DNA of 63,381 nt, filler included, from Asterionella formosa (lineage: Eukaryota): assembly GCA_002256025.1 (NCBI GenBank). It is 13 parts of 13 records of this genome, joined end to end, with 100 filler letters (N's around TTAATTAATTAA, not from the genome) between each part and the next. Parts side by side here need not be neighbours in the genome. Positions count along the whole stretch, not along the records: positions 49,799 to 51,220 come from NKIB01002516.1; 12 more parts are not named here. The stretch is one strand, 5' to 3'. Position 1 is the stretch's first letter, and the number at the start of each line of letters is the position of its first letter. Positions 23,428 to 59,885 of the stretch are shown here, one piece after another. Position numbers and translations under genes: made by a program. The notes beneath the pieces are model-generated. The model was not told the origin of the DNA and made no database searches. It was given only the letters and a program-made list of their open reading frames with translations.

Positions 23428-24849
23428 TATTATTCTTGTATTTTTATCAACGTTCGCTTGTTAGTTTTTGGTCCCACCCGATTAGTTTCCATAAATTACG
23501 TGGAGGCATGGCAACATAAAAATTATCTTTCCGTATCTGTTCCAAAACTTCTTGCGGTTTCAGAGATTTCCTTGATTCCTGTGGTTTCAAAGCAGGACAA
23601 CAAATGCTGCCAAAAGTATGTTATGAAATGCAACAACGCTCAATTCAGTTGTATCATTGCATAAGGTGTCTCCTCGCTCTTTCAAAAAACATACGTTAAT
23701 GAATTTTCATTTCAGTTGAACTTTTCAAGGAACAAATACACGCTAAGAGAATGGTTGTTGTGTTGGAGAAAATAACATTTCCCCAAAGAAGTAGTTTTGC
23801 AGGAACTGTGTAGGAACTTGATCCATCTCCCTTCTCCCAGTTCACTTCGACCCAGTCAAACCATTCATGACCAGAAATTCCTGCCTTTGAATCATTATTA
23901 CATTTCGGATGGCATCTGAAAATAGTAGTTTGGCCGGGAACGTTGCTTTCAATTTTAACATGATAATAAAAGTCAATCCTTACAATGGGAAACAGGCCCA
24001 ACCCCATCTTCAAGACTTTTTATTCATGCTATTTCTATTGCTGAATTCGCAATGTTCTTTACGTAGTTGGCCCCCTTTGGTAAATCAGGATGAACCAATT
24101 GAGACAAGGGTGCATCTTTACTCCGTGATACATGCCCAATCTTATTAGGGACACCTGCTATAGTCCATAGACCATTTGATGATGAAGCAAAAAATTGAAC
24201 TTTAACAGGAAGGGCTGGTGAATGGATTTTGGTAGGCGATATTTCCAAATTTTCAGGTGACCTACTAGGCAACATCATTGTGTCCGGAATCATTCCTTCG
24301 AAATCAATTTCTGTTGAAATACCCTCATTTACATTGCATTTTCAGGGAGAAAGCCGGTACAATCTTGAAAATCTGAATATTGCATGGTTTCTGAATTCAA
24401 CCTTTGGAGAGTTTTTAGTCTCAATTGTTCGTCTTGTTGTGACTGAATATTGTTATAAACTGAATCATCGCTGTCTTCATGAAGTGGATAATTGTGGTCA
24501 CTTGATTCAAGGATAGGACACATAATCTCTTCTTGTCTATTCTCCCTAAATGCTGCAGCAGTTACACTGCCATCATTAACTTCTTTCCTTGAATGATTAG
24601 ATGCACTACCGCAATACATAGTTTCACTATGTATTCCAGGAACTCGATGTTCCTGCATGCAATGTCGACAGTGACCATATGCATAAATAGCACGGTTGCT
24701 ACAATTTCGGTTGTGAGACTCAGATGGGGGTTTGTTCTTCCGAAATTTGTAGTTACACAGATAACACCATTGCAATGTGCGCAAAGACATTGCAAATTGC
24801 AAATGATGAACAAGTCAGGATATGAAAAGGATAGAATGAAAATGAATTA
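23428..24849 (-). mobile_element. Internally deleted Plavaka-like DNA transposon copy
   Basis: 24331-24849 is the reverse complement of ~32381-32898. 23696-24013 encodes FRCHPK...WFDWVEVNW...VPAKLL, resembling Plavaka-type transposase C-termini. Confidence 0.55.
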
Positions 24850-24949: not shown

Positions 24950-27900
24950 AAAACTGAGACGCTAGATTTCAAACGTGATCATTCAGATGTTTTGTACTAT
25001 TTCCAAGGAACTCGTGGAATTTACCCAGGTGGGAGTGATATCTTATCTGCAGAGGTCATCACAACGAAATTGACCAGTATGGACATTAATGAAGCTCACG
25101 CTAAATACGGACATATTGGGGAAGCGGCATTGCGGGCTACTATGAAATCGCTTGGTATCAAAATGACAGGTGTGATGTATACATGTGAAGGATGTGCGCT
25201 AGCTAAGGCTAAAGCAAAAAGTGTTCCTAAAATCACTATGAGCAAGGCTACTCAACCGGGCGAACGTTTGTGCACAGATATCAGCGGTCCATATAAAAAG
25301 TCGATTTTAGGAAATGACTATTGGATCCTTGTTGTTGATGATTACACCGGAAAATCTTGGAGTTTCTTTGTTAAGAAGAAGTCACAGCTTGCTTCAAAGA
25401 TTGAAGATTTGTTGACTAAACTCAAAACGGCTGAGTATGTTACCAAGTTTCTCCGTTGTGACAATGCGGGTGAAAACGTCTCAGGTTTGACAAAACTATG
25501 CGAGAAATTCAATATTCAAATCGAATTTACGGCACCCTACACACCACAACAGAATGGAATTGTGGAGCGAAAGTTTGTAACCATTCGTCAACGAGCATGT
25601 GCAGCAATGTTTGCTGCAAAATTTAATGATGAATTTCAAGGTTTACTTTGGGCAGAGGCCATCAACACCAACACACGAATCACGAACATTGTGGCCACAT
25701 CTAATGATGTAAAAAGTGCAGATGAGAAGTTTTACAAAAAGGTTCCAATGTTTTATGATCATCTAATGCATTTTGGCAGGATCGGATGGGTAAAAATTGG
25801 TCCTAAGAAAACAAATAAACTCGAAGAAAAGGCCATTAAATGTGTGATGGTTGGTTATTCTCATGATCATGCTGGAGACACTTACCGAATGTTTAACCCT
25901 CAGACAAGAAAGATTTTTAATAGTCGAAACATTCGCTGGGCTGATTGGCATGGCCAAACAAGTCCAATCGCAGGTTTGAGGGATTTCAATGTGGAAGGGG
26001 ACACAGAAGTGGGTGTTATTCCAATTGATGATGAAAAGCAGGACGAAGATGTTCTTCCTGTTGTGCCACCTATCCAGCAGGATATTGATTTGGAAACACC
26101 TGTTCCAGTTGTGAAACAAACAAGATTTCAGCTATCCGAAGCAGTGGGGAAGTTAGGTGATGAGATCAACAAAGATGCTTCGAAGAAAGCAAAATTGGAA
26201 CGAGAATTGAAACGCCTTGATGGTTGGAAAGAAGTTACTGGCAAACGCAGTGCTCGGCGCAGCTTACAACTAGGTGACAAGGACAAAGGATCAATTGAAG
26301 AAATAGATTATTCTGAAGCGGCCTATCAAGATGATGATGAACTATTTGAAAGTGAAGAAGGAGTAGAGAGGTTCTATGCATATTCTACAACGCTTGCTTC
26401 CGATCCTGGGGAGCCAAAGCATTACAAGGAGGCTATGAAAGGAGACGAGAGCAAGCAGTGGACCGTTGCTATTAAAAATGAAATCAACAATTTCTACAAG
26501 CGAAATGTTTGTAAAATGGTTCCTCGTGACAATCTCAAGGGCGGAAAACCCTTAGGCACACGCTGGGTATTCAAGAAGAAATCCGAGCAGGATAAAAGTA
26601 TTCGATACAAAGGACGTATTGTAGTGAAAGGCTACGTTCAGATCCCAGGACTGGATTTCACTGATTCATTTGCTCCAGTTGCAACAGATGCTTCAATGCG
26701 TATGATATTCGCTTTCTCGTTATACAAATGGGATAAGTCTGAAGGAATACGATGGGTCTGTGAAATCATTGATGTTGAAGCTGCTTTTCTTGAAGGAGAC
26801 ATGGACGAGCAAATCTATATTGAATGGCCAGATGGGGTTTTAGACTTTGGTTTCGAAACACAGGAAACAATGAAAAACAAATGCATTAAGTTGGAGAAGG
26901 CCATGTATGGCACAGTTCAAGCAGCGCTACAATTATTCAAGAAGATGGTTCAAAACTTAACCAAAGTTGGATTGAGGCAAAGCAAGGTCGATCCATGTGT
27001 ATTCTTCATCAAGGAAAACAATGCACTAATCCTAATTATTGCCACACATGTCGATGATTGTGCAATTGCTGGAAAGCCAAATGATATTAAATGGTTCAAA
27101 AATGAAATCAAGAAACACTTCACAATTAAGGAGCTTGGCCCATTGAAGAAGCATTTGGGAGTGTGGTACGATTGGGGCCAAGATAAAGTAGGACGCTACT
27201 TGGAGTCGAGCATGGAGGATTTTGTGCATGTTATGCTCCAAGATTATCATGATATTTTTGGAAAGTATCCAAGAGATGCATCAACCCCAGCATTTCCAGG
27301 AATTTTTCTCAGAACGAATCCAGACAAAGTGATTCTCCATAAAGAATACAGTTCAATGGTTGGAAAATTGTTGTATTTTGTGAAGAAAGTTGGACCAATA
27401 TGCGCGAATGCATGTCGTGAACTTTCTCAACATTTAGAGAATCCAGGTGATGCCCATTGGAGTGCTGTTGAACATTAGTTAGGTTTCATTGCAACTTATG
27501 AAAGGAACAGAAAATTAAAAATGAGACCACCACATGAATTACGAGTTCAAGACGTGGTAGACAGCTCATTTGGGGACAATCCAGATGCAAGGAAATCGAC
27601 AAGTGCATATTTGGGTACGATTGGTGGTGCATCGCTAGTGAATTGGATTTCGAAAGGACAGAAGATTGTTACTGTTTCCAGCACTGAAGCAGAGTATGTG
27701 GCTCTATCAGATGGATCAAAGGAAACTAATTTTATAATGAATCTACTCAATAAAGTTGAATACGTGGAAATGCCCAGTATCATTGCAGAAGACAATACAG
27801 GTGCGATTTTTCTATCAAAGAATCAGCAGGTTGGTTCACGAACTAAGCACATTGATGTGAGATATCATTTCATTCGAGAAAAGTTGAAGGCTAGGGATAC

Positions 27901-28039: not shown

Positions 28040-28550
28040 TAAAATATATGGAATCCGACGAATCGAAAATCAATACTCTTAGTAGTGATTGGAAACCAAG
28101 ACCCAGAACATTTTGACATTTATTGACAAATGACTGGAGATGTTTACTTATTGACAAATGACTGGACTGGAGATGTTTACTTATTGACAAGTGAAACAGA
28201 TGCTTACTTATTGTCAAAAGAATAAGTGATGCTCACTTATTGTCAAAAGAATAAGTGCTGCTCACTTATTGTCAAATGAATATGCTTACTTATTGTCAAA
28301 TGAATATGCTTACTTATTGTCAAATGAATATGCTTACTTATTGTCAAAGTAAGCAAGATCATTTTCGACGAGACCAAGGAAAGTGTGAGAAGTCTTGTTC
28401 GGGATTACATGAGTAATCAGGCAAGAACAAGACCTAGATAGACTATTAACAGAAAGCTCACAATATTACAAAGTGTAAAGTGAAAATACGTTTTCAACTT
28501 TAGAGATCTAAAAAGTAAGATCTGTGATATTTCAACCAGACAATTTAACA
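28037..28550 (+). repeat. 3' LTR of the Copia element (~514 bp)
   Basis: Follows polypurine tract AGGGAGGG; begins TGATAAA and ends TTTAACA (imperfect inverted termini). The right boundary is inferred. Confidence 0.7.
28118..28347. repeat. Tandem array of nine (C/T)TTATTG(A/T)CAA cores inside the LTR
   Basis: Cores near 28119, 28146, 28180, 28206, 28235, 28264, 28288, 28312 and 28336, period 24-33 bp. Confidence 0.9.
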
Positions 28551-32380: not shown

Positions 32381-33240
32381 TAATTCATTTTCATTCTATC
32401 TTTTTCATATCCTGACTTGGTCATCATTTTCAATTTGCAATTTCTTTGCGCACATTGCAGTTGTATTATCTGTGTAACTACAAATTTCGGAAGAACAAAT
32501 TCCCATCTGAGTCTCACAATCGAAATTGTAGCAACCGTGTTTTTTATGCATATGGTCACTTTCGACATTGCATGCAGGAACATCGAGTTCCTGGAATACA
32601 TAGTGAAACTATGTATTGCGGTAGTGCATCTAATCATTCAAGGAAAGAAGTTAATGATGGCAGTGTAACTGCTGCAGCATTTAGGGAGATTAGACAAGAA
32701 GAGATTCTGTGTCCTATCCTTGAATAAGTGACCACAATCATCCACTTCATGACGACAGAGGCGATTCAGTTTATAATAATATTCAGTCACAACAGGACAA
32801 ACAATTGAGACTAAAAACTCTCCAAGGGTTGAATTCAGAAACCATGCAATATTCAGATTTTCAAGATCGCACCGGCTTTCTCCCTGAAAATGCAATGGAA
32901 ATGCCCGTTCCTCCTCAATTTCAACTTCCAAGTAAACATTCTCTGAACATGCATCCTATCGAATTAGAACTCATGTTATTCCTCAACGAGAATTATCTTC
33001 CACCAGTTTACTTTGATCATCTAATGAAATGGCTGTTCAAGGCAAAAGCAATGACATATTTTGATGGAAGCAAGGTATCAAGCTCCATCCTACCAGACTT
33101 TGAAAAAACACATGGATATTTCATTTCCACCAACATTAGGAAGACCAACTGTTTGGGTTTCCTCTTCGAAAGCAATCTTTCCTTCTTTTCAATCTCAGCC
33201 ACTACTGTATCGGCATGATACTTCATCATTTTTTCTGGAG
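32381..33240 (+). mobile_element. N-terminal remnant of a Plavaka-like transposase
   Basis: Shared with the 23428-24849 contig; continues MHPIELELMLFLNENYLPPVYFDHLMKWL..YQAPSYQTLKKHM; stops and frameshifts. Confidence 0.45.
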
Positions 33241-49798: not shown

Positions 49799-50287
49799 TG
49801 ACAATACCAAGGAAACCATTGGCACCACCACCACTGGTACAGTGGACAGAGCGAGCGTTGGCAAAGAGTTCCTTGCGAAGGCGGGTTACAGTGAAGGCTG
49901 TAGGTTTGCCCTCGATCGGCGTCAAGAGCGGATGAGGGAATGGGAAAACAGCGGAAACGATTGGAGTCGTCATGGTGGAAGAAGGCCTGAGAGACAGGGA
50001 CAGCGAACGGGCAAGCGGTGCTGGACGGTTGATTGTTGAGACCAGTGCTGGTTTGCACTGTCGACAAGACCCGCAACTTCGCAGGTGCGGACAAGAGAGA
50101 AAGAACAGATATTGTTGTTCTGTTGAGGGGAACCTTATCGTGAATAAAGGTGAACTACAATATTATGACTATTCTATTGCTGTTCCAAGTACATCGTTGT
50201 TAGCACTCACGCATGTACCTAATCTGGTGGCTGCGCCGGTATGGTTCGTACGGCGCATGTATGGAGCATCATATGCAGATATTAACA
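49799..50287 (-). mobile_element. CoDi-type Ty1/Copia 5' end: 167-bp LTR (50287-50121), leader and gag start (49973)
   Basis: LTR TGTTAAT...TCAACA; gag FPFPHPLLTPIEGKPT..LRKELFANARSVHCTSGGGANGFLGIV. Confidence 0.85.
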
Positions 50288-52082
50288 GCTATTATTGCTC
50301 TTTTTTTCATTTTGTGTAAGTACCGGTATACATGTAGCACCTGGTATCATATAAACAACGATACACACGTGACCACAAACTAGCTCTATTTTCTATTCGC
50401 TAAAAATTTGAGCGGGAGATTTGACTATTTTAGGATTTGGTCGATGCGGTGGGAAAAAATTTCACTATGTACCGGTATTGATAAACATTTCTCGACCAAG
50501 TGATGTGTTTTGATATTTGCAACTTTAATTGGCTTTGGTATTTGGTCGCTGCACTGCAGATGCTCGAATCCTATTATGTATGTGTCAACGTCAGCGCTTT
50601 AAATGGCTGGCTGGCTGTACAAGAAGATTTTTCTTGCAGCAACGGAGGGACGATACCGGTAGATTCGTTCATTATCTACCGGTACCGTATGTAAATATAG
50701 GTATGTAACAGTTGCGTGCACTGTGTACCAAGTGCCACTGCTCCAATGATCACATTTTTTCATACATAAACCTGTATCACATGACAAAAGCTTTTCCAGC
50801 AGTACGCTCGTATGACGACAAGAATACTTACTAAGGTACCAGGTACTGGTATATGTATGGTGAACGCAATCCTACCTGGTAGTACCTGGTACCTGGTAGG
50901 GTGTATGTAAGATGTACGTGTACATGTCGTTGGTACGCTGTACCAGGTACTGGCAAAACTATACCGGTAGTATGCATCAGCATTCCTAACAGAAATTGCC
51001 GGTACAGCTGTTTGTTCGATGCATCCCATGGAATATCGTAGTGTGCAACGTCCATTTAGTTGTAGTCAGCTGTTGCACGAAGACTAAAACTCAGTCGAGA
51101 GTTGTGAAGGCTCCGGAACTATCAGCCTCCTGGGACATATTATCTCTCTACTTCAGCGCCCGAAAGTGGAAAAGGAGAGAAATTCCCGGCAATCTGGCAC
51201 CCCATCCCGTCTTCCAAAGANNNNNNNNNNNNNNNNNNNNNNNNNNNNNNNNNNNNNNNNNNNNTTAATTAATTAANNNNNNNNNNNNNNNNNNNNNNNN
51301 NNNNNNNNNNNNNNNNNNNNAACTCATGCTTGAGGATGTGCTTGAGTTGATCATTGAATGATTGTTGACTCTCGAAGTAAGCCAAAACCAAGCGAATCAA
51401 TTATTTTGTGTTCTTTTCATTGTTCCATTCAAACACTTGTTGCCACGCATTGTCGATCAAGCAAAATGACAATCAACCTCAAATCTTCCTTGGCGGAAAC
51501 CTCTTGATCTTCTGGATGAGTTATCATGAGTTTTAGGAGCTTCTTTAAGGTCTTGAGACAGGCAGCGAAGTCGATTATAAACATGTTGAAATGTTTTATT
51601 GAGTAATATCATGGCATCCAGCCACTGTTATTGACTCTCAGAGATATCATGAAGAAGGTAATCTTCCAGTCACATCACTATGACTTTCTTGTTGAGACTT
51701 TTATGATGGGACTGAGCATCTGAGTGTATTGCAACGCTCATCCAGTCAGACAGGACGATATCTATGAGTCATCTTTTGTAGCAGTAGGTGAACAAGCAAG
51801 GAATCTGCTGGACTGAAGATATATGTGTTAGCCATATCACAGGATTTACTGAAATCAATAAACAAGCTTCCCCTGAGCGTCAATTGATCATATCTTTGCT
51901 GTAAGACTCCAAATGTCGACCTGGCTTGTAAGGATACACAAAGAAGTTTGAATCTTGATGTTTAGTATGTTGTTATCCTTCATCAATGGGACCACTGGAA
52001 CTTGAGAGGACATCAACAATATTAATTCTAATTGGACTCTTTTTGAATAATAGATGAAGAAAAGAGTTGTGGCAATGTTGAT

Positions 52083-53213: not shown

Positions 53214-53461
53214 TGTGTGTTATAAATCACTAGACTGTCCTGCTGATCTATCTGTTTGCCTCAACACATGAAATGTTGTGCACTTGTGTGACTCATTTCT
53301 CTAGTCCTGATAAACTACTCTAATAACTCTTTAACAAACACACCTTCCAAACTCCTTTCGAGCTTGTCAGATTAGTTATCAGACTCACCCCTTCCCTCAT
53401 ACTCTTGTTCATCAACATTATCAATCTCCCTCGTTCCCTCTTTCATTACAGGTTATGAGCC
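53214..53461 (+). repeat. Copia 5' LTR plus PBS GGTTATGAGCC
   Basis: Homologous to the LTR at 40524-40765; ends TTCATTACA at 53450; PBS 53451-53461. The left boundary is approximate. Confidence 0.75.
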
Positions 53462-53787
53462 TAAGCTTTTTCCTTGAAAGAAAAGAAATTGTTGATTGCC
53501 ACTTCAATCTCACCATTGGCGCCAACCGCAAAATTTCATTCATATTCGATTGTTTTCGCATCATTCATTTGTCATCTACATCTGTCTAGCTGCATACTAG
53601 TACACTTAAAAATGTCAATTAAATTTTATAGTACATAAAAGCTATCCAATAATTGCACTCAGGCCCACCAAATAGGTGGACACAATTAGTACCGGTTTTA
53701 TTCGTCCATATGGTACAACGGGACCTGTCGTTTTGTTCCGCCTAATGGTACTAGTACAGGGTCGAACTTTTGACTTGCATCTGCCCG

Positions 53788-56095: not shown

Positions 56096-57302
56096 TGAGC
56101 TTATTAATTAATCCTTATGTATAACTCATTTCCTGAACTGACATCAAAGTATAGAATGGGTGTTAGTCGAGTTCTCTCATTATTGAATTCCGATATATTT
56201 GACATAACCCCAACTCTATATATATCTGTATCGATGTGCAGGATTGCTCACTCTCCCACACTTGAGGGAAAACCTTTTACCTATGAAAAGGTTTGATACG
56301 ACGAATATTAATTCGTTCGGTAATATGCATAGTGCGTTGAAAAGTAACTGTACCATTGGCATGTACTTGAATAATAGTATAAGGACCTCGTCCACGATCA
56401 TCCAAAGTAGTAGGATTATCCAATAATATTAAAATCTCGTCACCCACTTTGTAATCATAAGATCGACGACGGAAATTTGCACGACGTAAACGTTCGTCAA
56501 TTATCACCTGTCGACGTTGATGTATTAATTGTAAATCTGTAATCAAAGGAATATTTAATATCATATCACGTTGGAAAACCCATGCTCCTGGTGAAATACG
56601 TAATATACTATGAATAGTAGCTCGAGCTGCATATGACGCAGCTGCAAAACATGTATCCACAATATTTTGGGCTTGAAATTCATTGATTGGAGGATGAGCC
56701 TTTAACATAACTCGTAGACTATTGCTGATAGATTGATGGAAACGTTCACAGATAGCATTTGCTTGTGGATTCTTTACTGTGGTAGTCACATCTTTGATTC
56801 CATTCAATACTAACATGTGTAAGAAAGGAGCACCAGTAAATTCACCTCCATTGTCATGTATACAACGTTCTGGACGGGGATATCTGGCTAACCAATCATT
56901 TTCAAATTTCATTGCAATATATTCTGATGTTTTATTGATGATACGTGAAATTTCTGCTAAATTGGTGACTGTGTCAATACAAGTTAGAGCACGAAATTCA
57001 ATCGTTTGAGCAGCCACTGTTATCTTCCATGGACCAATTAGATCTACTGCGACTTCTGACCATGGTAATAATAATGCATTCCTGGGTGGAAGTTCACCAA
57101 AACCAGTACCAGGTAATTTTGTACGTTGACATGCTTCACATACTCTTACAATATGTTCCACTCTTGTTTTTAATATAGGGTGATAAAAATGTGTAGCAAT
57201 TGTAGCATTTAATCTTGTCATACCCACATGAGCTAACATCTGATGATACCAATTAATAATAGGATCCAATAATGATGTAGGAATAGCAATACGCCAAGTA
57301 TC
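56096..57302 (-). mobile_element. Ty3/Gypsy integrase (56277-57302) plus PPT and 155-bp 3' LTR (56250-56096)
   Basis: HHCC (YHQMLAHVG..CEAC), PWSEVAVDLIGPW, DNGGEF, PQANAICER, GPY motif. PPT GGGAGAG then TGAGC...GCTCA. Confidence 0.92.
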
Positions 57303-57949
57303 NNNNNNNNNNNNNNNNNNNNNNNNNNNNNNNNNNNNNNNNNNNNTTAATTAATTAANNNNNNNNNNNNNNNNNNNNNNNNNNNNNNNNNNNNNNNNNN
57401 NNACATCACCACTTGTATTTGAAGCCATTCTTTTTCTAAAGATGAACCGTCATTTTTGGAATGATGTTATTGTAGGAAAAGCGATGGGAAGGACACTTGC
57501 TCCTGCAGATGAATTCTAGAAAATAATCCATTAAAATTTACCTATGTTATTCTTTGCTTAATATAAAAATATATGGACCACTTCATTTGCAAACTATTCA
57601 CATCACGATAGCAAGATTTGATAAATTATCATCTATTCATTGATCTCCGTCTACTTTTTCTCTGGTAGAAAAATAATGTGAAATAATGTTTAATTGCAAG
57701 TGCAACATTTCCAAATAACTTTTAAAAACAATCTACCTACAATATACTAATTAAAGCAGGATTTAACAATATGAAATCAGGCAAATAATGACAATGATGA
57801 AGTTTCTTTCCAGCTACTGATTCTTTAATAACGGTATGATGATTAAGTCTTTTCGTTACAATGGACAGTACCATCCATTTGGAAAAGAATAGAATAAGAT
57901 AGTATCCCAACGCCATGGAAAGGGCCAGTTCATCATTCATGTTGTAAAA

Positions 57950-58822
57950 TCTACTCACAAAATTGAAATGATATGTTTCTACTAGGCTACTACTGGCTGC
58001 TGGATATACCATTTCTTTACAACCATAAGACCGTTCCGTTATGTTGAACATTTCAATTGACTGGGGACTAGAATAGTTTGGAAGTGTATCCATATCTCTT
58101 TCTTGGAACAATGACAAACGACATAAAATGGTCATCATGTATTGTTGTCGCATAAATACACAAAATTGAAATGATAGGTTCCTACTACTGGATATTCCAT
58201 AAGAACTTTACAACCATGAGACCTTTCCATGATGTTGAACATCTCATTTGATGGGGCAATAATATAGAATGAGATTATACACTTACCTCATTCTTGGAAC
58301 AATGACAACCCACATAAATACACAAAATTTAAATGATTGGTTCCTAGTACTGGATATTCCATAACTTTACAACTATGCGACCACTCCATGATGTTGAACA
58401 TCTCATTTGACGGGGGAGTAATATAGAGTGATATTATACCCATATCTCACTCTTGGAACAATCACCAACGCCAAACAATGGTGAGCATGTGATGTTGCAG
58501 CATAAATACACAAAATTGAAATGATTGGTTTCTACTACTGGATATTCCATAACTTTGCAACCATGAGACCTTTCCATGATGTTGAACATCTCATTTGACG
58601 AGCCAATAATAAAGAATGAGAATCAACCCTTATCTCATTCTTGGAACAATGACAAACGACATAAAATGGTCATCATGTGATGTTGTCACATAAATTCACA
58701 AAATTGAAATGATAGGTTCCTACTACTGGATATTCCATAACTTTACAACTATAAGACCTTTCCATGAAGTTGAACATCTTAATTGACTGGGGATTAATAT
58801 AGACCGAGATTGTATCCAAATC
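57950..58822. repeat. Tandem repeat, ~5 units of 160-200 bp
   Basis: CACAAAATT(G/T)AAATGAT recurs at ~57956, 58159, 58321, 58509 and 58697, each followed by TACTGGATA..CCAT and GTTGAACAT motifs. Confidence 0.9.
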
Positions 58823-58922
58823 NNNNNNNNNNNNNNNNNNNNNNNNNNNNNNNNNNNNNNNNNNNNTTAATTAATTAANNNNNNNNNNNNNNNNNNNNNN
58901 NNNNNNNNNNNNNNNNNNNNNN

Positions 58923-59885
58923 TGTGGCCATACTTGCCACACTTACGACAGTCACCTTTGAACTTCCCTTTCGTGTAGAAGGCCTGTTCACTCTTGTTCT
59001 TGTCAGTCGTTTTGACGTCATCCCGGACATATAGATCGTAGTAGTCCCGGATGTCTGTCTTAATCTCTTCGACCGTTAGCGTGTTGCGCGCCAGGCCGAA
59101 CCTTCCTACTACCAAACTCTTGTAGCTCTCCGGTAGGTTGTTGATCATGTGTGCCACATAGGCACCATCCGAAACGGCAGAGCTTGTATTGCCCAATCGT
59201 TCCCGGATTCGATCCAACTCCACATACCAGCTGTCGGGGTTCTCGTTTTCCCCTAGAGTGCACTTCGTCCATTGGTGGGACAAGGCAATGACATTCGCCA
59301 TGTTGCCTGACTCATACGTCGAAATGAGCTTGTCCCATGCTTCTTTAGCATTGCCGTTAGGAAACTCGGCACTTCTTGCATTATTTACGTGTCCGAATGG
59401 CCCACTCTGGCATGCCATTATCAGACTTGCGTAAGCAACTGTGTTGCTCCTTCGGATGCGTCTCTCGTCAGCATCCGACAACACGATCGTATCGCCCTTT
59501 AGGTCTTTCTCTCCTCTTGGTAGTTCGTCACCGTTAAGTATTTCTTGAAAGTTCTTGTAGCACGCGTATGCGAGAAACTTCGCTTTCCACATGTGCCATT
59601 TAGCATCTTGCCCATCGAATGTCGGCAACCTCACTGACGTGTCTTCGTCACTTCCCATCGTTCCTGAGTAGCCTGTGGCCTTAAAGTGGACGCTTTAAAG
59701 CGTGTTGAAAGGTCTCGTACTCCTTCCCGTCTGATGGGTTCCTCTTACGTAAAACTTACCTGTTATACCACTAGTATTGTTATCTTCTTTCTGCTGCTAG
59801 CCTTCGTGCTAGTTTTCGCTATTGACCTTACTCTGTCAATTCTCACTGTTTCTTAATTATAAGATTAAACTAAAACTAAGTTTCA
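58923..59885 (-). mobile_element. Ty1/Copia 5' end: LTR (~59885-59703) and gag with zinc knuckle (59658-58923, truncated)
   Basis: LPTFDG..W.MWK.KF, AWDKL, NNLPESY, CRKCGKYGH; LTR shared with 48274-48410. Confidence 0.9.

Follow-up and report, generated by a model that had tools for sequence, protein, structure and literature searches.

A diatom Ty1/copia lineage with a primer-binding site complementary to its own LTR: a candidate for Tf1-like self-priming in Asterionella formosa

Priming of reverse transcription on the element's own RNA was demonstrated experimentally for Tf1/Tf2 of Schizosaccharomyces pombe, members of the Tf1/sushi group of the Ty3/gypsy chromoviruses (Levin 1995, 1996, as reported in PMC7175516 and PMC10085805). 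The Tf1 primer corresponds to exactly the first 11 bases and is provided by the 5' copy (Maxwell 2020, PMC7175516); according to the S. osmophilus genome paper, a "pretzel" of three duplexes is needed (PMC10085805). In case of the plant Ty1/copia lineage TAR, including Houba and Osr-1, sequence data led to the prediction of self-priming (Neumann et al. 2019, PMC6317226), and an earlier proposal for Houba and Osr-1 is cited there. The criterion applied to TAR is that at least 10 bp of the 5' LTR are complementary to a region which begins 0-5 bp past the LTR (PMC6317226). Self-priming in a Copia lineage has therefore already been predicted and is not new as such; in the literature examined, the experimental demonstration is confined to the Gypsy-type Tf1 group and the prediction to this one plant Copia lineage.

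The CoDi elements of diatoms are placed on a branch that is separate from the majority of Copia lineages (Llorens 2009, PMC2774666). The main text of that study does not use the term "PBS", and the main text of the description of CoDi families mentions neither tRNA nor priming (Maumus et al. 2009, PMC2806351). GalEa, a Copia element of the branch that also holds CoDi, resembles the element described here in the absence of a tRNA PBS and in an inverted repeat located right past the LTR; however, the partner within its Conserved Hairpin Site (CHS) is situated downstream of the LTR with no complement in U5, whereas the partner in the diatom element lies inside the LTR (Donnart et al. 2017, PMC5445492). 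Nothing relevant is contained in the accessible text of a Symbiodinium paper (PMC5776459), and no report of self-priming in diatom elements was returned by a full-text literature search, the reach of which excludes most subscription journals, GyDB, and Repbase entries.

The element and its 5' end

The window analysed here is a stretch of 63,381 nt from Asterionella formosa in which 13 contigs are chained with N spacers between them. The feature under study is situated on the minus strand of a 1422-bp contig (G000:C2516, window 49799-51220), which comprises flanking DNA, one LTR, the leader, and 58 gag codons (Table 1). Since this 1.4-kb contig carries only a single LTR, the LTR ends were fixed from other copies. 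A DNA search for family copies gave 271 candidates, 40 of which were scored (93-100% identity), and a search with the LTR only gave 260 candidates, again with 40 scored, among which four other LTR copies are 100% identical to the LTR of this locus. The repeat 50287-50121 was recovered as 37 distinct 5' copies, each followed by the PBS and preceded by unrelated flanks. As 3' copy, the same 167-bp LTR was found 22 times, with a common purine tract upstream and unrelated DNA past the CA, and two solo-like copies occur among the loci fetched. Due to the fact that the LTR end is fixed independently by the 3' copies, the PBS can be seen to adjoin the LTR with no base in between.

Table 1. Features of the element's 5' end and its flank (window positions).
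Feature	Position	Strand	Basis
5' LTR, 167 bp, TG...CA	50121..50287	-	ends fixed by other copies
Initiator-like TCATA; start predicted at 50166 or, by the diatom TCAH+1W convention, at 50165	50164..50168	-	fixed-register motif in relatives
LTR 12-mer able to pair with the PBS; predicted duplex-forming portion of the self-primer, which ends 3' at C50152	50152..50163	-	covaries with the PBS
Inner hairpin ACCTT/AAGGT with stacking onto the duplex of primer and PBS	50132..50151	-	present in MFE structure
Segment between LTR 12-mer and PBS, role inferred	50121..50151	-	geometry; loop of relatives
Predicted PBS, no spacer after the LTR; private mismatch at 50116	50109..50120	-	family copies
Untranslated leader past the PBS, opening with a pyrimidine-rich run	49974..50108	-	sequence; conserved in family
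Start of gag (ATG at 49973), truncated by the contig end	49799..49973	-	sequence
Copy-specific flanking DNA	50288..51220	.	upstream flank differs among 5' copies

Three natural full-length copies of 5546-5597 bp are present, with 156-160 identical bases over 164-167 columns in their LTR pairs. A clean 5-bp target-site duplication borders the full-length copy L031 and the solo LTR L056, while those of L035 and L036 are not clean. With direct terminal repeats of the form TG...CA, a purine tract before the 3' LTR, and a target-site duplication, the element is an LTR retrotransposon. Longer natural copies run from gag into PR-IN-RT-RH, and this pol order assigns it to Ty1/copia. In L031 and L035, a Gag zinc finger is followed by PR, IN, RT, and RH, as judged by motifs that we assume to be diagnostic rather than by a library. 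The full Gag of the family comprises 364 aa and has 64 homologues; a Pfam search with it gave no match, and cluster look-ups for Gag yielded no named organism. Pfam matches on the genome's own copies are weak (SH3_retrovirus, E 1e-4; RVT_2, E 0.01), RVT_2 is recorded for many among the 120 listed RT/RH homologues, and the ESM Atlas returned unnamed clusters only, with RVT_2 on 16% of one of them.

For the RT/RH region, 1013 homologues were found among 8000 scored, and the organism-named matches among the best 120 derive from Fragilaria (3), Nitzschia, Cylindrotheca, and Fistulifera, with 54-60% identity. A further RT/RH relative of 1075 aa (P0141) is labelled Marinobacter shengliensis and located on a contig of ~5.4 kb; most likely it represents diatom DNA in a bacterial bin. 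The diatom host together with the diatom RT relatives fits a CoDi-like copia lineage of diatoms. The Copia (CoDi-like) label given in a preceding sequence-only reading of this DNA was borne out with regard to the domain order and the diatom lineage. Similar to CoDi families such as Blackbeard with its 163-bp LTR, the element is a diatom Copia within the 5.2-8 kb range, has a short LTR, and carries one stop between gag and pol; some CoDi families also occur without TG/CA termini (PMC2806351). With TAR it shares the Copia superfamily and, measured by the TAR criterion, a complement of 12 bp at offset 0. Unlike TAR, which is found in plants, it has a diatom host, and its named RT/RNase H relatives among the best 120 are diatom proteins. 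Considering the published placement of CoDi (PMC2774666), its self-priming would probably have originated separately from that of TAR. A multi-copy diatom Ty1/copia element of ~5.55 kb, amplified recently and consisting of gag, an in-frame stop, and PR-IN-RT-RH, has its 5' end at this site.

A single in-frame TGA or TAG separates gag and pol in 49 of the 74 frames scored (41 TGA, 8 TAG; L032 3547-3544 and metagenome loci L091-L168). Three or four bases past the gag stop, a conserved purine-rich G(A/C)GGG(A/G)AG-like motif is situated, and stop and motif together possibly form a signal for programmed readthrough or re-initiation. Among viral contigs, 85 pattern matches were obtained, with no relative of the element among them.

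Other parts of the window contain further repeats. A Copia pol piece with rve, SH3, and RVT_2 is located at 24950-27478 (+), a Retrotran_gag_2 ORF at 58867-59694 (-), and an Integrase_H2C2 ORF at 56277-57350 (-). The regions 24326-24849 and 32381-32903 form an inverted duplicate of ~520 bp with 93-96% identity across two contigs, which probably belongs to another repeat family, and tandem arrays with units of 24-33 nt and ~188 nt occur at 28132-28351 and 57961-58822. In case of a host gene in the window, the three organism-named homologues are from Seminavis, Fistulifera, and Attheya, and the host is accordingly regarded as a diatom.

A PBS-LTR duplex kept by compensatory change

Immediately past the TCAACA, GAACAACAATAT is located at 50120-50109 (-). 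It is complementary at 11/12 positions to ATATTGTAGTTC at 50163-50152 (-), and the inverted repeat ACCTT/AAGGT occupies 50151-50132 (-) between the two 12-mers. Both 12-mers, the 11/12 complementarity, and the inner stem had been described in the sequence-only reading, and all were found at the coordinates given there. Within the family, pairing is 12/12 in 33 of 37 5' copies, and the four exceptions have one single mismatch each, all of them different. A T at PBS position 50116 is present in 36 of the 37 distinct 5' copies, so that the mismatch is private to this copy; the pairing base at 50116 also occurs in the contigs of all four RNA runs compared. TGG is absent from the first 25 nt past the LTR, in agreement with the former claim that no TGG tRNA PBS exists here. 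The 55-nt stretch of this copy folds with z = -3.0 (3/200 shuffles) and that of a family copy, in the same test, with z = -5.3 (0/200 shuffles); since the hairpin had guided the choice of both fold windows, the genuine test against chance is provided by the blind scan described below. The inner stem is contained in the MFE structures of this copy and of a family copy. Among the distinct relatives, however, the 5-bp inner stem was observed in only 7 of 31, all belonging to the near subclade, and the rest are without a common loop structure. The ACCTT/AAGGT stem of the former reading thus holds for this family and does not extend to the lineage, and an inner hairpin as a general requirement was rejected.

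Metagenome contigs were searched with a 14-sequence Gag alignment, since an alignment of 41 sequences was too diverse as a seed. Out of 116 Gag relatives, the best 80 were taken, which correspond to 78 loci; 15 of these were excluded because of too little upstream DNA, leaving 63 testable loci with gag relatives of 32-94% identity. Up to 400 nt before gag were scanned blindly for all perfect inverted repeats enclosing a loop of 15-80 nt, with a cut-off of 10 bp, and the LTR end was not used. A perfect duplex of at least 10 bp (arms 10-15 bp) was detected in 50/63 loci, compared to 0/63 gag windows of the same length and 3/315 dinucleotide shuffles. The 13 misses are made up of five loci with an imperfect duplex at the same place, five contigs that are too short upstream, and three loci without a recognisable site. 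The 50 positives reduce to 31 distinct PBS 12-mers, with arms of 10-15 bp and loops of 20-55 nt (mode 31). On average, each PBS pairs with its own LTR at 11.8/12 positions and with the LTR of another family at 6.8.

For the analysis of covariation, this copy and 29 sequences chosen from the scan positives were aligned with MAFFT. In this 30-row alignment, two-sided changes were observed at 10/12 pairs (80 cells), and covariation amounts to 0.60 compared to 0.16 after shuffling. Paired cells make up 93% as against 28-38% in slid registers, and G-U was encountered in 1/357 cells and in 0/31 at the outer edge; the pairing percentage and the lack of G-U are inflated because the rows were picked from scan positives, which leaves the blind counts unaffected. 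RNAalifold returned the same helix as consensus and nothing else. The innermost C-G pair is invariant in 30/30 rows, and the predicted cut is followed by A in 27/31 and by C in 4/31, this base never being paired. The 12 nt past the LTR show Watson-Crick complementarity to an LTR segment 31 nt upstream, and this complementarity has been kept by compensatory change in the lineage. The compensatory changes that had been named beforehand as a check are abundant, with 31 distinct PBS tracking their own LTR.

The bases before the 31 PBS are CAACA (14), CAATA (11), CAGCA (3), CATTA (2), and CTTTA (1). Before 14 of the 31 distinct PBS, the LTR accordingly ends in TA and not in CA (CAATA, CATTA, CTTTA), and in L146 and L159 the TA end was confirmed by a second LTR. 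A second repeat copy is available for 11 loci, and in six of them (L146, L159, L169, L172, L173, and L174) the start of the duplex coincides exactly with the end of the shared repeat; two of these six LTRs end in TA. The LTR ends of L168 and L185 are ambiguous, and a direct repeat in L127 was rejected as an LTR pair. In A. formosa itself, only 11 out of 20 diverged copies reach the 10 bp required, and two compensatory subfamily variants were identified. L186, a distant family of this genome with 35% Gag identity, has a duplex of 14 bp.

Proposed priming mechanism and competing explanations

As in Tf1, the PBS follows downstream from the 5' LTR and is complementary to a segment of the LTR where the RNA 5' end is predicted, it shows no complementarity to a tRNA 3' end, and a tRNA site is missing. 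A duplex of 11-13 bp is common to the Tf1/sushi group and the diatom element. The order of domains is that of Copia and not that of Gypsy (PR-RT-RH-IN), so that the element is not a member of the Tf1/sushi group, though it would work like one. In contrast to the first 11 bases used by Tf1, the diatom primer is predicted to have 14-17 nt with 2-4 unpaired 5' bases. Further differences from Tf1 are the loop of only 20-55 nt and the LTRs of many relatives that end in TA instead of CA. The pretzel of Tf1 has no counterpart here: one duplex is common to the diatom lineage, and a third duplex was not found in folds including 40-90 nt past the PBS. The best reading is that reverse transcription in this lineage is primed by the element's own RNA in a Tf1-like manner, which from comparative sequence data we consider quite probable. 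Points against it are the missing pretzel, the predicted unpaired 5' bases, the 13 misses of the blind scan, and the count of only 11 passing copies among 20 in the genome itself. The type of mechanism itself is not new, and the comparative data argue strongly for a real, lineage-wide feature. A self-complementary PBS, the absence of TGG, compensatory changes, and the absence of a cytosolic tRNA match in an incomplete tRNA set all support the self-priming originally suggested for this locus.

The position of the transcription start can be predicted from a motif in fixed register. The A of a CAYW motif is situated 15-17 nt before the primer 3' end in 28/28 distinct loci with enough upstream DNA, and at any other position CAYW occurs in at most four loci. 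TCAH+1W was proposed as diatom initiator by Kadono et al. (PMC4686930). Due to the fact that TCAHW is common, being present in 68% of 80-nt promoter windows (PMC4686930), only the fixed spacing of the motif is informative. For this copy, a start at 50165-50166 is predicted, i.e., 2-3 nt upstream of the paired 12-mer and not at 50163 as in the sequence-only reading, and the predicted primer has ~14-15 nt with 2-3 unpaired 5' bases. The stretch is contained in 14 RNA runs, in all cases as contigs. RNA contigs of four runs span LTR, PBS, and gag, though contigs cannot show RNA ends; since some of them continue into flanking DNA past the LTR, they may derive from DNA.

Starting from TCATA, transcription would place the LTR segment at the RNA 5' end behind two or three unpaired bases. 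By analogy with Tf1, this RNA 5' end would fold onto the PBS and be cleaved after C50152 (50152/50151), probably by the RNase H of the element. The cut is presumed at this base because the innermost C-G pair is invariant and the next base is A or C. Cleavage would free a 3'-OH on a primer of 14-15 nt, from which the reverse transcriptase would copy 31 nt only. As this short strong-stop DNA would have to jump to the RNA 3' end, a poly(A) site is expected within 50151-50121 of the 3' LTR; a poly(A) run of at least 12 was observed in none of the 63 metagenome loci checked. In the weakest step of the model, the PBS of the progeny would be re-templated from the primer, and this would explain the strict Watson-Crick pairing with almost no G-U.

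An alternative that we regard as unlikely is a structural role of the duplex, in packaging, dimerisation, translation control, or as a switch hiding the site, with priming by something else. A precedent is given by fungal GalEa, in which a conserved hairpin replaces the PBS and the mechanism is not known (PMC5445492). In the diatom lineage, however, the 3' arm directly adjoins the LTR, exactly where a primer must end to set the LTR boundary, and the invariant innermost pair and the near absence of G-U, including the outer edge, likewise speak against a structural role. In addition, another primer site could not be recognised within 25 nt.

Distinctly improbable, in our view, is self-priming by the 3' LTR copy, in which the RNA 3' end, ending or cut exactly past the 12-mer, would anneal to the PBS in cis or on a partner RNA with no release of a 5' primer. 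The 12-mer is present in both LTRs, and covariation and sequence therefore cannot separate this model from the 5' model. The absence of the Tf1 pretzel speaks in its favour as well, and loops down to 20 nt would hardly accommodate a strand-transfer repeat in the 5' model. On the other hand, a non-polyadenylated 3' end at a precise base would be needed, for which a precedent was not found in the literature examined, the fixed distance between initiator and primer end (28/28) is a prediction of the 5' primer, and Tf1 uses the 5' copy (PMC7175516). If true, priming by the 3' LTR copy would proceed by DNA synthesis straight from this RNA end, via a covalent RNA-DNA intermediate, and represent neither tRNA priming nor Tf1-type cleavage.

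Most LTR partners end in TAGYTC, which we take to resemble tRNA positions 8-13, and this was the motive to consider priming by a host tRNA fragment, namely the 5' portion of a tRNA with its end in the D arm. The PBS was compared with 64 distinct ARAGORN tRNA records, the loci of which cover most of 62 Rfam hits (63 of 3876 candidates scored). The best match among them has 10 nt and is the 5' end of a tRNA-Asp(GTC), which matches the family PBS over this length; three records with next-best matches are long intron-type artefacts and were disregarded. Sequences resembling such a tRNA 5' end were located by pattern search at 38 places; one of these is the tRNA-Asp, and 12 others were examined, without any tRNA among them. 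The set is incomplete in that the nuclear initiator tRNA is absent from it and was recovered by pattern search in two copies, which leaves this explanation some room. However, the matching tRNA-Asp is located on an AT-rich (29% GC), tRNA-dense, organelle-looking contig, the 31 PBS sequences track their own LTR, several of them without TAGYTC, and the TGG site for a mature tRNA end is missing. We therefore give a tRNA fragment very little credence. The check for a host tRNA complement, which might have contradicted the initial proposal, yielded no cytosolic match in the 64 ARAGORN records and the pattern search, this set being incomplete. That the inverted repeat arose by chance in AT-rich sequence is next to impossible: the duplex is short and AT-rich, and one extra match with one mismatch is expected about half the time in 63 kb, but the 50/63 loci compared to 0/63 and 3/315, the fixed place, and the changing letters already refute it.

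Some additional tRNA-like sequences were encountered. A further multi-copy repeat (L238-L249) carries the tRNA-like pattern at ~30 places and is not a tRNA. At window 53441-53466 (+), a CA at 53451 is followed by GGTTATGAGCC, 11 nt of which can pair with the anticodon arm of the genome's initiator-type tRNA-Met (L250, L251); judged by its sequence, this is likely a candidate half-tRNA PBS of a different LTR element. Sites of the tRNA type are therefore recognisable in this genome. Near the primer, the conserved words CTCATAA and TAGCTCA presumably resemble the tRNA-Met anticodon loop and the D arm/box A, respectively. Their order is wrong for a tRNA remnant, and they probably represent a coincidence with the initiator, although the self-primer may derive from a captured tRNA piece.

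Implications for diatom LTR elements

With self-priming on the element's own RNA as the preferred reading, a widespread Copia lineage of diatoms would follow the same logic as Tf1 in a stripped-down layout, i.e., one duplex, a loop of 20-55 nt, and a fixed distance between initiator and cut. Annotation procedures that require a tRNA PBS or a CA end would miss or mis-trim such elements. The finding also bears on the question of whether LTR elements began self-primed and took up tRNA later, as proposed by Benachenhou (2013, PMC3601003).
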